Shown here one piece after another: positions 33,341-62,102 of a DNA stretch of 64,000 nucleotides. Made by a program: the position numbers and the translations under genes. The notes under the pieces were generated by a model. It ran no database searches. It had not been told where the DNA came from and saw only the letters and a list, made by a program, of their open reading frames with translations. Positions within the stretch are counted from its first letter, which is position 1; every line of letters starts with the position of its first letter. This stretch comes from a virus: positions 33,492-97,491 of the IMG/VR virus record IMGVR_UViG_3300036790_000034. One strand, written 5' to 3'.

Positions 33341-34504
33341 CTAACTGTTGACAGCAATCTTTGCGTCGATGACCTTCTTGGCCTCTTTCGCAATCTTATC
33401 AAAAACCTCGTCCTCTGTCAAGAACTGGTCGTGACGGTAGGGCTGGCCTTCAAAGCCCCAGAATCCCTTCCCGATGCCGTTCCCCTCGTCGGTCTTGGTC
33501 TTGTCTCCGGCGACGATGATGCCTTGATTCTCTGCATATTGCACCATGTCGGCCCGTTTGTCAAATCCGGTGTCGTAGAGCAAATCCACGACGGTCTCAC
33601 GGAACGGGTTGCCGACTTTGTTCTTGATGCACTTGACCCTCATGCGATGGCCGACGTGCAGCTTGGTCGCGGGGTCAATCAGTTGCCCGCCGTCAGTGTT
33701 ACTCAGACGCCGGACCTCGAAGCGGAGCGAGGCATAGAACTTCAGAGCCTTGCCGCCCGTCGTCGTTTCGGGGTTGCCGAACATGACGCCGATTTTCTCG
33801 CGAACCTGATTGATGAAGATGAGAATCGTGCCGCTCTTTGCAGTGGCACCAGTCAACTTCCGCATCGCTTGCGACATCAGTCTCGCTTGGAGACCCATGT
33901 GGCTGTCGCCCATATCTCCGTCAAGTTCGGCTTTCGGTACGAGAGCAGACACCGAATCAACGACAATGACATCAAGAGCACGAGAGTTGACCAACGCCTC
34001 GACAATCTCCAAAGCCTGCTCACCGTAGTCCGGCTGCGAGATGATGAGGTCTTCAATGTTCACTCCGATGCTGCGTGCGTGACTCAGCATCAATGCGTGC
34101 TCCGCGTCCACGATGGCCGCGAGTCCGCCTTCACGTTGGGCCTGTGCAATGACGTGGAGAGAGAAGGCAGTCTTGCCCGCTGACTCCGGCCCATAGATTT
34201 CGATGATACGACCGCGAGGGATTCCACCGCAACCGACGGTCTCCTCATCCACTGTCGGCAATCCGAGAGAAAGCGAAGGCACTCTGACCGCGAGTGCCTT
34301 CTTTCCGAATCGCTGAATCAGCTTATTGTCCTTCGTGTTAAATGAGGCCGCTACTGATGCGACCGCTTTCAACTTTTCTTCCTTGGTCATCACCACTGCT
34401 GGCGTCACCAACTCCACTTGCTCCGGCTTCGTCGTTGAGACCTTGAGCGTTGCCTTCACCGTTGACGCTATCTGCGTCGGTTCCTTGCTGATTGTCAGAC
34501 TCAC
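33341..34504 (-). CDS. recA: Recombinase RecA
   Basis: [15 protein letters not shown]; DAEHAL; VVDSVSAL; [12 protein letters not shown]; [22 protein letters not shown]. Confidence 0.97.
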
Positions 34505-57843: not shown

Positions 57844-58041
57844 CTACCTCGTGATGCAGGTAGTCTTGGTCGGAAGTTCGTGGTACTCCGGCTTCTGCTT
57901 CATGGCTGTCACGTCGCCGCCTAGAGCCTTCGAGACCGCCTCTTGAATCGCATGGCATCCTTTGCCGTGGAATCCTTTGAGGTCCAGTTCAACGTCGCCA
58001 GTCTCAGGGTCGATTGTTACGATTGCAATTTCGCCTGCCAT
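57844..58041 (-). CDS. DUF2997-like protein
   Basis: I.I...G.V.....GF.G..C......LG.......KPEY. Confidence 0.75.
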   Translation of the reverse strand: MAGEIAIVTIDPETGDVELDLKGFHGKGCHAIQEAVSKALGGDVTAMKQKPEYHELPTKTTCITR

Positions 58042-58060: not shown

Positions 58061-58501
58061 CTAGAACGTCGCGGTCATCTTCATGTACTTGATTTGAATC
58101 TTGCCGTTGACCATCTCTTTGCCGAGATACTTGAACCCGTTCTTCGCGAGTTCTTTCTTGACTCGCTTGTCCGAGTAAGATGTCTTCAGGCCAGCCAGCC
58201 ACTTCGTGTTGTGCTTGCCGCTGTCGTACTGCGAGATGATAGCGTCATAGCACTTCGTGACGGGGTCCAGTTTGAAGCCGAGGTCGTTGGCTACTCCACC
58301 GACGTGATTGCGACGGACGATGATGTTCGCCTTGTCACCAGTCTTGTCGAGGTAATGGGTTGGACGCCCGTGCCAGTCGTAAAGCTGCTGGGGCACTTCG
58401 TGATACTCGATGTGCTCACGCTTGTAGCCCATCTCGACAAGGGCGTCGATGAGAACTTCCCGGTCCTTACATTTTGTGGTCGTCTTTCGATATTCGCTCA
58501 A
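58061..58501 (-). CDS. DUF1257 / Ycf35-like protein
   Basis: T..KD...L..AL..MG; A.I.VR.......NDLGF......Y.AI...YD; Y.......A..NGF. Confidence 0.75.
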   Translation of the reverse strand: MSEYRKTTTKCKDREVLIDALVEMGYKREHIEYHEVPQQLYDWHGRPTHYLDKTGDKANIIVRRNHVGGVANDLGFKLDPVTKCYDAIISQYDSGKHNTKWLAGLKTSYSDKRVKKELAKNGFKYLGKEMVNGKIQIKYMKMTATF

Positions 58502-58878
58502 GGCTTTGTCCTCCGATTCAGAATTTTATCCCAGCGTTGTAGATACCGCAAGGCTTTCTTTACCAGTCTTGGCGAATCCTCGAACCCGCCGAGGCTGGTA
58601 TTACATCTCGGACACAGCACCCCACGTCGGCACCGTATGCAGCCATTTCGTGGAACGTGCGTACAAAATCGTTTAGCGGTCTCGTGACTGTGGTCGAGGT
58701 TAAACTTAGTCAGTCGCCGTTCGCAAATTTCACAACGTTTGGCGATGTCACGTAACTGTTTTCTCCGTTGTCTACGACGGGCGTTGTTGTGCTCACGAAG
58801 GCGTTTCTTGTCCGCCGCGTATCGCCGCTTTCCGTATGCCCTCATCCGTGCTAAATTTTGTTCGCGTGTTAGCGGCAT
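58498..58878 (-). CDS. Endonuclease VII-family homing endonuclease
   Basis: CEIC; LDHSH; GC.RC.RGVLC.RCN..LG.FED. Confidence 0.85.
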   Translation of the reverse strand: MPLTREQNLARMRAYGKRRYAADKKRLREHNNARRRQRRKQLRDIAKRCEICERRLTKFNLDHSHETAKRFCTHVPRNGCIRCRRGVLCPRCNTSLGGFEDSPRLVKKALRYLQRWDKILNRRTKP

Positions 58879-59284: not shown

Positions 59285-60202
59285 CTAGCGGAACTTGCGT
59301 CCCGTCTCTTGAACCAGAACCGCAGCCGTCTGTTTGATGACTGCGACCTTGTCTGCAACGTACTTCTTGAGGTTCTGTGACTCGCGAATCTTGTCCATCG
59401 TCACGCCCTTCAGGATGCTACGGAGTGGGGAGACGACTTTCTCCTGATACTCAGCATCACCCGCGAGGTCGCGATTCGTGAACGTGTCCAGATACTCGGT
59501 GAGGTTCGTGATTGTGGTGTCGAAAAGTTTCTTCGACTTGCCAGTGACAGGGTCAGGCGTCAACGCGTTGACCAGAGCATCGACCGCCGTCATGCCCATC
59601 ACTCGCATCGTGTCACGCCATTCAAGAACTGCCTCGTGGCGAATCGCGAGTTCCTTCTCCAGTTCCATCGCGACGATGAAGTCCGGCAGACCTTCGAGGT
59701 TGATGGCACCGACCGGACGGATGTTGAACGTGAACGAGAAGCCAGCTTCGACTTCATCTGACTTCGGATAATCACCACGGTCAAACTTATCACCGAGTGC
59801 TTCAGCGATTGGCTTGAAGTCTACCGCTTCGAGTGCTCGGTAGGTCGCCATGAACTTCGCGACCAGAGACGGACGACGAATCTCTTGATACGCACGCAGC
59901 GACTTGTATATCGCCGCGAGTTCCGTCTTCTGGATGAAGCGAGTCGCTTTGCTGTAACGTGACGACTTGCTGTCGATGTGACGCGTCATGTAGCCGTCTT
60001 GACTGCGAATCTCATCGAGTTCAGGAGAGTCAATCAACTGCTTCTGGTGACGCAGGAGAGTTTTATCTGCTGTCGTGACCACTTCGAGGTTGCGAATCTG
60101 ACGCATCCTGCCTATCCCCATCGTGGTGTGCGTTGTGATGAAAACACAAGCCTCAGTTTTCTTGAGGCTCACAGAGGCTAACGCGGGTGCGGGTGCTGAC
60201 AT
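59285..60202 (-). CDS. DUF3150-like protein
   Basis: K.L.D..EL..I; LGD.F...DYP..DEV...F.F; C-terminal GRKFR. Confidence 0.65.
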   Translation of the reverse strand: MSAPAPALASVSLKKTEACVFITTHTTMGIGRMRQIRNLEVVTTADKTLLRHQKQLIDSPELDEIRSQDGYMTRHIDSKSSRYSKATRFIQKTELAAIYKSLRAYQEIRRPSLVAKFMATYRALEAVDFKPIAEALGDKFDRGDYPKSDEVEAGFSFTFNIRPVGAINLEGLPDFIVAMELEKELAIRHEAVLEWRDTMRVMGMTAVDALVNALTPDPVTGKSKKLFDTTITNLTEYLDTFTNRDLAGDAEYQEKVVSPLRSILKGVTMDKIRESQNLKKYVADKVAVIKQTAAVLVQETGRKFR

Positions 60203-60518
60203 TGGATTCTCCTAGCCACTTTGCAGCGGCGGTTATGAGTTTGAGACTATCCTCGAACTTACCAAGCCCGAGGTTGCAACTGTGGCAGAGCAAACCACGA
60301 AACTCTTTCGTGTCATGATTGTGGTCTGCACAAGGTCGCAAGGTTTCGCTGAACTCCCGCTCACAGATGCCACAGCGATTATGTTGCTTCGCGATGGCAC
60401 CCGTGAATTGTTCAGGAGTGCAGCGTCCGTTCCTTTGTCGATAGTAGAGACTCAACCGTTCGTGGTTGCGTGCCTTATACCGACGATTCTTAGCAAGGAT
60501 GTTTGGGGGAGTTTTCAT
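60153..60518 (-). CDS. Endonuclease VII-family homing endonuclease
   Basis: QHNRCGIC; DHNH.T..FRGLLCHSCNLGLG.FED. Confidence 0.85.
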   Translation of the reverse strand: MKTPPNILAKNRRYKARNHERLSLYYRQRNGRCTPEQFTGAIAKQHNRCGICEREFSETLRPCADHNHDTKEFRGLLCHSCNLGLGKFEDSLKLITAAAKWLGESNVSTRTRVSLCEPQEN

Positions 60519-60527
60519 GAGCACATC

Positions 60528-62102
60528 CTACCTGAACTTTCTACCATCCTCACTTGGGACAATGGATGGCTCGTACTTCGTAACCGGGGGCGAGTATTTG
60601 TAGACTCCCGGCTTGCTGGCCGACAGGAAGCGGCCAGTCGCATAGTTGCGGAGGTTGTCCATCTGCTCACGGTGAGATGAGAGCAGCGGAACGACGTGCT
60701 GTCCGGCTTCGGTGAGGTCCATCCCCATTGCCTCAGCCTTGAATGCACAGTTGTTCACGTCGCGACCAGTCCAGTCGTCCATCTTCGGAAGCGGCTGTTT
60801 CGGGTCCAGTTTATACTTGGCAATCTTCAACTTCATGATGCCCTGTTTCTCAGCCTCATCGGGCACGTCGAAGAAGTAGATGCCGCCGACTTGGAACCGC
60901 GAGATTAGCTCAGGTGGCAGACCGTCGAGCGAGTTCGCGGATGCAATCAACCAGATGCGAGGATTGCTGACGCCCTCGACACCGCCGCTGATTGCGTTGA
61001 GCACCTTGTGAGCGGTGCGTTGATGACGTGACGACTTGCCAACGTGCTCGTGTTCCATCGCGGGCAGCGAGTATTCGATGACAGGTGTCTCGAACTCACC
61101 GCCGATGCAGAACACTGACCATGACTTCGACGAACCCGGAACGCCGAGGAGCAGCGTGCAGACCACGTCGTTGTCGTTGACCCACGTCAACCATTCACCA
61201 AGCAGGTTGCCCTTGGTGCCGGATGAGTCTGTGCCGTTGCCTGAGAACTGACGTTGAATCTCATCCATGCGGACGATGACGTTGGGCCGATACTTGCCCG
61301 CGAAGAACTTGTTCGCCAGCGTGCGGATGACATCGCAGCCGTACATGTCCTTCAACGTTTCGCCTTTGTTGATGTGATACGTCAGCCCCGGATTGGCAGA
61401 GACGATTGTCTTTTTGCGTGACCAGAGGGACGCGAAGTCCATCTTGCCAGTCTTCATGTCGAGCGACTGAGAGAAAGCCTGCTCTGCCGGGAATGCCGGG
61501 AGGCCGATGGTAGCGGCCACGCATTTCTCAATCACTTCAGCCGTCGCTGCATTCTTGCACGCGGGATACTTCTGTGCCGCGTACGCGAATGTGTCAGTGA
61601 CAATCTTCGCGAGTTCTTCGCGAGTGGGCAGTGGCTCCTCAAGCACCAGCATGTCCTGCTGAAGTTCGCCGGGGAGTTCATCGCCCATGCCTACAAGGTT
61701 GACCAGCATGTTGCCGCGTGCCTTGTAGAGATTGCGACAGTTCCATTCGGCCTGAATGACTCGCTGGTCTTTCTCCCAGACCAACTGCGGATTGTGAATG
61801 AATGCGATGACATCCTCTTTCGCTTTCTCAAGAGTCGTCAACGCCAGCGTGAGGTCCACAGTCGCGGCCAACTCGCCGCCGACTTCAGATGCCATCTCGT
61901 TCAGTGCCTCGCCGCCAATCTTGTTGAGGCCGACCAACCCGTGTATGCTATCCCACGACACAAGCGGAGTTAAGGCAGCTAACTCTTTGCCCAACGATTT
62001 TGTGATGCTTTGAATAGTACTTGATGGGTCAAAGGTTCGCACGGTTACTAAGGGCGTTGATATCGCTCGTGCCGAAGAGAACATATCAATGAAGGACTTC
62101 AT
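60528..62102 (-). CDS. Ycf46-like AAA+ ATPase with swapped Walker B / Walker A segments
   Basis: Inactive-looking N-domain (WD...GL; LP.EL...LP.REEL). Then VIVRMDE..DSSGT..WLTW, then LLLGVPGSSKS, then ASAN..LPPEL..RF, FFDVP. Confidence 0.8.
   Translation of the reverse strand: MKSFIDMFSSARAISTPLVTVRTFDPSSTIQSITKSLGKELAALTPLVSWDSIHGLVGLNKIGGEALNEMASEVGGELAATVDLTLALTTLEKAKEDVIAFIHNPQLVWEKDQRVIQAEWNCRNLYKARGNMLVNLVGMGDELPGELQQDMLVLEEPLPTREELAKIVTDTFAYAAQKYPACKNAATAEVIEKCVAATIGLPAFPAEQAFSQSLDMKTGKMDFASLWSRKKTIVSANPGLTYHINKGETLKDMYGCDVIRTLANKFFAGKYRPNVIVRMDEIQRQFSGNGTDSSGTKGNLLGEWLTWVNDNDVVCTLLLGVPGSSKSWSVFCIGGEFETPVIEYSLPAMEHEHVGKSSRHQRTAHKVLNAISGGVEGVSNPRIWLIASANSLDGLPPELISRFQVGGIYFFDVPDEAEKQGIMKLKIAKYKLDPKQPLPKMDDWTGRDVNNCAFKAEAMGMDLTEAGQHVVPLLSSHREQMDNLRNYATGRFLSASKPGVYKYSPPVTKYEPSIVPSEDGRKFR

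Follow-up and report, generated by a model that had tools for sequence, protein, structure and literature searches.

A viral Ycf46-like AAA ATPase family with the Walker B segment encoded ahead of the Walker A segment

Few enzyme folds have been studied as much as the AAA+ core, for which textbooks and profile libraries alike give one fixed order of motifs. Its sheet has the strand order 5-1-4-3-2, in which strands 1, 4 and 3 are parallel neighbours with their N-terminal ends side by side. The usual motif order is found in the Ycf46-like ATPases (COG0464) of Rhizobium phage RHph_I4 (QIG76105.1) and Aeromonas phage HJ05 (WEV89366.1) as well as in P0390 and its relatives; the label Ycf46-like rests here on the names in the sources ('SpoVK/Ycf46/Vps4 family') and on an automatic ESM Atlas cluster name. 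Here we describe a related ATPase that is encoded in a 64,000-nucleotide stretch of soil-phage DNA (the window; positions 33,492 to 97,491 of IMG/VR record IMGVR_UViG_3300036790_000034, which is complete, 97,491 bases long and has direct terminal repeats). The gene is a single open reading frame (ORF) on the minus strand (60528-62102) coding for 524 amino acids. Its product shares with the normal-order ATPases the N-terminal degenerate domain, the Walker B signature, the sensor-1/Arg-finger region, the lid and the partner genes, but carries the blocks with Walker A (block A) and Walker B (block B) in the opposite order. We consider it likely (probability roughly 0.8) that the protein is an active, ring-forming AAA ATPase of the Ycf46-like type (classical AAA clade), in which two adjacent beta-alpha segments of the catalytic domain have been exchanged.

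A sequence-only reading of the window had described an AAA+ ATPase with a Walker B block before a Walker A block and a sensor-1 block, and the positions given for the three blocks map correctly to this one open frame. The swapped order is confirmed by a profile built from 108 normal-order relatives, which matches the window protein in four separate pieces. These pieces cover the profile without overlapping, yet they follow one another in a different order; that reading had expected two out-of-order local matches from a profile alignment. Residues 9-259 match profile positions 9-249, residues 275-312 (Walker B and helix 3) match 333-373, residues 316-373 (Walker A to helix 2) match 275-332 and residues 382-436 (sensor 1) match 375-427. 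Tunturi_3 gp103 (XOB77284.1, annotated 'ATPase', from a 97.6 kb genome) and the divergent member P0238 show the same out-of-order pattern, while two normal-order controls gave one collinear match each. The two blocks were also aligned separately (Smith-Waterman) with the ATPase of RHph_I4, the nearest annotated normal-order relative, whose motifs Walker A, Walker B and sensor 1 are at 303, at 358 and near 398, respectively. Block B aligned with its Walker B region at 357-392 (z 5.9) and block A upstream of this match at 300-355 (z 9.9); in both cases none of 2000 shuffles scored as high.

Block B of the window protein reads YRPNVIVRMDEIQRQFSGNGTDSSGTKGNLLGEWLTWVNDND, which includes the motif IVRMDE and the next helix. 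The signature IDEIEKQ[FL][AS]G...D.G.T...FLTW is common to both classes of proteins and is found after Walker A in the normal-order relatives. In the window protein Walker B lies 40 residues ahead of Walker A, so the usual order Walker A-Walker B-sensor 1 is not present. A canonical Walker B downstream of Walker A, named beforehand as the finding that would overturn the swap, is absent: helix 356-371 and strand 383-389 are separated only by an 11-residue loop that contains neither a strand nor an acidic pair at a strand end.

The collinear BLASTP alignment with the RHph_I4 ATPase (E 2e-16) gaps out the Walker B block of the latter and is misleading when read alone. Pfam AAA (PF00004) matches the window protein with 26 bits (cut-off 21.2) in two fragments, the better one placing residues 361-404 on profile positions 78-124, unlike the RHph_I4-type ATPase, which matches in one stretch (profile 1-129, E 1e-29). 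No NCBIfam AAA model was found for the window protein at E <=0.01, while the RHph_I4-type relative matches the CDC48, PAN and FtsH models at 1e-38 to 1e-22. Both the fragmentary Pfam match and the NCBIfam miss are explained by the collinearity of these profiles, since the order is broken in the window protein. Its PHROG family is phrog_8638 ('unknown function'). A PDB match to C2 toxin (E 0.0065) was dismissed, being short, of low identity and located in the sensor-1/lid region.

Homologues with the same order, the existence of which would speak for a natural permutation, proved to be numerous. HMMER, run exhaustively over 1.84 billion cluster representatives, returned 853 proteins at E <=1e-30. 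Among all collected proteins, there are 372 in which Walker B precedes Walker A by 38-47 residues and 119 in which it follows at a distance of exactly 59 residues, and no protein has an intermediate spacing. Block-specific hidden Markov models, built only from swapped proteins, found the order B-A-C (block C being the sensor-1 region) in 367 proteins and A-B-C in 119. These numbers bear on the simplest alternative, namely that the order is an artefact, whether it comes from misassembly, from a chimeric contig or from motifs matched by chance. We found no point in favour of an artefact, and it is hardly credible. Misassembly is refuted by the 372 homologues, which come from many sources, and by an independent 429 nt soil contig from a different study (about 95% alike) that is collinear across all three junctions; the shuffling results speak against chance. 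The order is, moreover, present in the cultured Tunturiibacter phage Tunturi_3, the gp103 of which is 35.6% identical to the window protein over 99% of the length, although its annotation is silent on the swap.

Five swapped members (P0291, P0320, P0329, P0331 and P0356) would be either prophage-borne or chromosomal copies, as the contigs that carry them measure 137-423 kb and bear the labels Terriglobia, Bryobacteraceae or Acidobacteriota. In a peat metatranscriptome library, a 754 nt contig (about 91% alike) spans 60968-61721 and with it the swapped region. It hints weakly at transcription of a relative, though DNA carry-over may also account for it. The comparison with sequencing runs covered X1, X2, X3 and X23, the others contributing small shares only, and the match in X3 spans only the 3' end of the gene. 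Inteins within the ATPase are suggested for four normal-order proteins (P0478, P0487, P0498 and P0508), which reach 843-891 residues and carry the Pfam domain PF14528 (LAGLIDADG_3). In P0498, blocks B and C match without a recognisable match to block A.

For a phylogenetic tree the proteins were cut at three anchors, and the swapped ones were re-ordered to N-A-B-C for the alignment only (161 taxa, 477 columns, LG+gamma). All 98 swapped sequences fall on one side and all 63 normal-order sequences on the other side of a single split (Shimodaira-Hasegawa-like support 1.0, branch length 1.2). Judged from this tree, the swap most likely arose once.

The residues expected in an AAA active site are conserved in the swapped proteins. 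Across 382 members, with identities down to about 32%, E281, G323, S/T327 and the sensor-1 residue N390 are conserved in 100%, G320, K326 and the Arg finger R402 in 99.7% and D280 in 98%. The window protein itself contains a Walker A motif with Ser in place of Gly before the Lys, a Walker B of the hhhhDE type (IVRMDE), the sensor-1 Asn and the Arg finger. Walker A had been read as GxxxxSKS, and indeed its sequence is GVPGSSKS (GxxGxSKS). Across the family the Lys is preceded by Ala, Ser or Gly, and about a quarter of the members have Gly; by this comparison the Ser is a family trait and not a defect of the window gene.

An AlphaFold2 (AF2) model of the window protein, computed with 78 sequences, has a mean predicted local distance difference test (pLDDT) score of 89.9 and a predicted template modelling score (pTM) of 0.80. 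Its catalytic module comprises, in this order, helix 257-268, strand 275-279, short helix 282-285, helix 296-310, strand 314-320, helix 326-336, strand 341-344, helix 356-371, strand 383-389, helix 397-401 and strand 408-411, after which the lid follows. The five strands and the helices of the core are all predicted, in the order beta3'-alpha3'-beta1-alpha1-beta2-alpha2-beta4-alpha4-beta5. Each of these elements, down to the short helix behind Walker B, has its counterpart in the model of the normal-order relative P0390 (pLDDT 86.6), where they follow the usual order. Residues 2-492 of the permuted model superpose on Cdc48 220-785 (8ub4_D; Z 17.4, 403 aligned residues, root mean square deviation (rmsd) 4.5), covering both rings. 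Its N-terminal 234 residues, which contain no Walker motifs and match positions 9-249 of the profile of normal-order relatives, superpose on the first ring of p97/Cdc48. With the D2 domain of p97 (3cf0_A) the model gave Z 14.7 and 204 aligned residues at an rmsd of 2.7. When both models are compared with identical PDB chains, the permuted one falls short of the normal-order one by 48-67 aligned residues and by about 10 Z units (204 versus 266 residues on 3cf0_A, 214 versus 270 on Vps4 6oo2_C). The shortfall corresponds to about block B plus loops and the remainder fits at an rmsd of 2.7-3.3 Å, as expected if an order-dependent aligner cannot place only block B and the loops.

Co-evolution was analysed with mean-field direct coupling analysis (DCA) using swapped members only (effective number of sequences 205, residues 225-470, 27,048 pairs). 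The pair 275-372 (rank 3) connects the start of the moved strand with the end of alpha2, which is the covalent junction of the normal-order proteins, and the pairs 282-387 (rank 6) and 277-385 connect the moved strand beta3' with the sensor-1 strand beta4. Couplings between 296, 297 or 299 and 350 and between 299 and 358 link the two pore-loop regions, while 307-369 and 311-369 link alpha3 to alpha2. The usual pairs beta1-beta5 (318-411) and beta1-beta4 (317-387) are also seen, and alpha0 is coupled to the P-loop and alpha1 as in normal AAA proteins (259-318, 263-333 and 256-325). Direct beta2-beta4 and beta3'-beta5 pairs score lowest. This coupling pattern agrees with a sheet of the order 5-1-4-3-2 in which the moved strand takes the place of beta3, and would argue against a position at the edge. 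With the order of the predicted elements, the couplings and the conservation taken together, retention of the fold appears well supported.

Some of the strong couplings that helix 296-310 shows with positions in the lid and at the Arg finger (308-447, 309-450, 312-450 and 308-401) possibly reflect contacts between subunits. They could point to a block that is swapped between subunits, with strand 275-279 and helix 296-310 completing the core of the neighbouring protomer and the active site formed in trans, an arrangement that the new connections could permit. We regard such a subunit exchange as improbable, given that the AF2 monomer packs the block in one chain with a pLDDT of about 93 for 270-280 and 300-310. 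Packing within a single chain is also favoured by the junction loops, which are as short as in the normal-order relative (alpha3'-beta1 3 residues versus 4 for alpha3-beta4 in P0390; alpha0-beta3' 6 versus 7).

The strongest coupling in the catalytic module is that between positions 401 and 447. Position 401 directly precedes the invariant Arg finger, and 447, within the lid motif [ST]G[AR][DE]I, corresponds to sensor 2. R401 is combined with A447 in 221 of the 382 swapped members and S401 with R447 in 133; the window protein is of the S401/R447 type, while Tunturi_3 gp103 is on the R401/A447-like side (ELLRRF). The normal-order relatives show the same either/or pattern. No taxon in the tree lacks both arginines and seven of the 161 have both, with about 14 switches implied by the tree. 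Judging by these alignments, arginine at 401 and arginine at 447 are mutually exclusive, which offers a testable point on gamma-phosphate sensing in the Ycf46-like group.

In our preferred reading, an exchange of two segments within a retained fold, the protein would consist of a degenerate first AAA-like domain and a catalytic second domain. The normal order of the latter is alpha0, then segment A (beta1-Walker A-alpha1-beta2-alpha2), then segment B (beta3-Walker B-alpha3), then beta4, and here segments A and B are exchanged. The three breakpoints all lie in short loops just before beta1, beta3 and beta4. Because the N-terminal ends of these three strands are side by side in the AAA sheet, only loop connections would be altered, and each element would be able to keep its usual place in space. 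The ATP site, made up of the P-loop Lys, the Walker B Asp-Glu, the sensor-1 Asn and the Arg finger, would then be assembled as usual. The ends of the combined A and B segment should be close in space, since the breakpoint strands are neighbours and the junction loops are no longer than in the normal-order protein. Closeness of segment ends is the usual condition for circular permutation. The likeliest route would be a tandem duplication to A-B-A-B, followed by loss of the outer A and the outer B to leave B-A, which would amount to a circular permutation of an internal segment.

Several points weigh against this reading. The usual Gly before the Walker A Lys is missing in three quarters of the members, the window protein included. 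A Walker A and pore-loop block had been predicted from the sequence, and the block was found, but its pore-loop region (H-V-G here, L-V-G in most of the family) is without the aromatic residue typical of pore loop 1 in classical AAA proteins. The strand-pair statistics of the DCA are modest when taken alone (p 0.03-0.09 for the best three pairs, whereas beta3'-beta2 reaches only a weak p 0.25), and the strand order in the sheet is deduced rather than seen directly. Neither an A-B-A-B nor a B-A-B form was present among 508 proteins, a set that leaves the 'longer' length class unsearched. Finally, the tree is unrooted and its normal-order sample is centred on one query group, so that the swapped clan may be either nested or sister.

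The departure of Walker A from the standard, with Ser or Ala preceding the Lys, and the non-aromatic pore loop 1, together with the failure of the NCBIfam AAA models to recognise the window protein, might alternatively indicate a pseudo-ATPase or scaffold that binds nucleotide without hydrolysing it and has an altered sheet with the moved strand at the edge. The broken collinearity, however, accounts for the NCBIfam failure. Moreover, Glu281, Asn390 and Arg402 are invariant down to the most distant members, and beta3' couples to beta4 and to the end of alpha2 but not to beta5, which makes such a pseudo-ATPase improbable. We keep to the exchange of segments in a probably active ATPase. The sequence-only reading had proposed a natural internal permutation that rewires the P-loop fold; the permutation is supported, and an altered strand connectivity with a kept sheet is what the order of the predicted elements, the couplings and the conservation suggest. 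It is also quite probable, with somewhat less confidence, that the family is very large, old and so far unremarked (about 850 clusters at 50% identity, in phages and on Acidobacteriota-labelled contigs) and constitutes a natural non-circular permutation of the AAA+ core that is still a working motor.

Table 1. Positions of the permuted ATPase gene, its parts and its neighbours in the window (residue numbers refer to the 524 amino acid protein).
Feature	Coordinates	Strand	Remarks and basis
Whole gene (P0001)	60528..62102	-	Ycf46-like AAA ATPase with permuted core; single ORF; >370 full-length homologues
N-terminal alpha/beta domain and lid, residues 1-234	61401..62102	-	like a degenerate first AAA ring, without Walker A
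Linker and helix alpha0 (257-268), residues 235-270	61293..61400	-	now leads into the Walker B strand; AF2 and DCA
Block B, residues 271-312	61167..61292	-	predicted beta3' (275-279), Walker B, pore-loop-2 region GNGTDSSGTKG, alpha3' (296-310)
Walker B Asp280-Glu281	61260..61265	-	conservation
Block A, residues 313-375	60978..61166	-	predicted beta1 (314-320), Walker A, alpha1, beta2 (341-344), pore-loop-1 region HEHVGK, alpha2 (356-371)
Walker A GVPGSSKS, residues 320-327	61122..61145	-	conservation in 382 members
Alpha2-to-beta4 junction loop, residues 372-382	60957..60989	-	new junction; no strand predicted
Block C, residues 383-412	60867..60956	-	predicted beta4 with sensor-1 N390, alpha4, S401-R402, beta5; IWLIASAN...ELISRF (383-402) at 60897-60956
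Sensor-1 N390	60933-60935	-	within block C
S401	60900-60902	-	directly before the Arg finger
Arg finger R402	60897-60899	-	within block C
Helical lid with WTGRD, residues 413-500	60603..60866	-	AF2; R447 at the sensor-2 position
R447	60762-60764	-	
C-terminal tail GRKFR, residues 520-524	60531..60545	-	family tail motif
Endonuclease VII-type gene between ATPase and X305	60153..60524	-	PF02945, E 1.9e-14; missing there in L005, L008 and L009
Partner X305, 305 amino acids	59285..60202	-	synteny beside the ATPase in L005, L008, L009, L018 and others
Partner X120, 120 amino acids	58883..59245	-	synteny
Second endonuclease VII-type gene, between X120 and DUF1257	58498..58878	-	PF02945, E 2.5e-12; missing there in L005 and L009
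Partner DUF1257 (Ycf35-like)	58061..58501	-	PF06868, 22.5 bits (cut-off 22.2); synteny
Partner DUF2997	57844..58041	-	PF11211, E 2.8e-6; synteny with permuted and normal-order ATPases

Two further features are located at a junction of the permuted core and at the C-terminus of the protein (Table 1). The loop between alpha2 and beta4 is four residues long in most family members in the alignment, and a 7-residue insertion, GGVEGVS, is found only in the window protein and in P0002 (87% identical). The C-terminal tail contains the motif R[KR]xR, which lies no more than 4 residues from the C-terminus in 135 of 364 permuted members and in 1 of 112 normal-order proteins; the tail of Tunturi_3 gp103 reads GRIIR.

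The ATPase gene heads a co-oriented module with X305, X120, DUF1257 and DUF2997, and these five genes are contiguous in the related phages L005, L008 and L009. The two endonuclease VII-type genes that interrupt the module here look like homing-endonuclease insertions. Pfam has no match for X305 and does not confirm the label 'DUF3150-like' for it. The homology of the window protein to the Ycf46-like group is full length, including the N-terminal domain, and DUF1257 and DUF2997 are its neighbours; normal-order relatives in phages and bacteria likewise lie beside these two genes, which indicates that the swap left the partnership unchanged. A PADLOC search gave only a weak partial match of the ATPase to TRIP13 (E 3e-4, residues 152-202) and no defence model for the partner genes. 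The ATPase probably acts as an ATP-driven protein remodeller early in infection, together with DUF1257, DUF2997 and the two further small proteins.

A widespread natural family in which two core segments are exchanged means that the fixed motif order is not obligatory. The family is apparently a new, widespread and functional topological variant of a known enzyme family, and the co-evolution evidence and the mutually exclusive arginines at 401 and 447 are new here. Should our reading be correct, neither folding nor catalysis would depend on the chain order of the P-loop core. Proteins of the two orders that share their partners would then form matched natural pairs for studying folding pathways, loop connectivity, ring coupling and the coupling of hydrolysis to the pore loops; in the swapped form the first ring would be tied directly to the Walker B/pore-loop-2 unit instead of to the P-loop. 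The family is open to experiments through the cultured phage Tunturi_3 and its host Tunturiibacter, which carry a member.

In the literature searched, which does not span every journal, no published AAA+ protein with Walker B ahead of Walker A was found, and the papers on 'permuted' enzymes concerned methyltransferases. The type II classical AAA proteins p97/Cdc48, NVL/Rix7 and Drg1 have the same two-domain architecture and fold as predicted for the window protein, with about 12-16% identity. The window protein differs from them in that its first domain is without nucleotide motifs and in the chain order of its catalytic core. From these comparisons, the Ycf46-like group as a whole seems to resemble type II AAA proteins whose first domain has degenerated. 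A changed motif order with retained fold and active site is known among P-loop NTPases from the circularly permuted GTPases YlqF/RbgA and YjeQ/RsgA. Those are permutations of a whole GTPase domain, whereas in the family described here an internal segment of the AAA core is permuted and both flanks are fixed.

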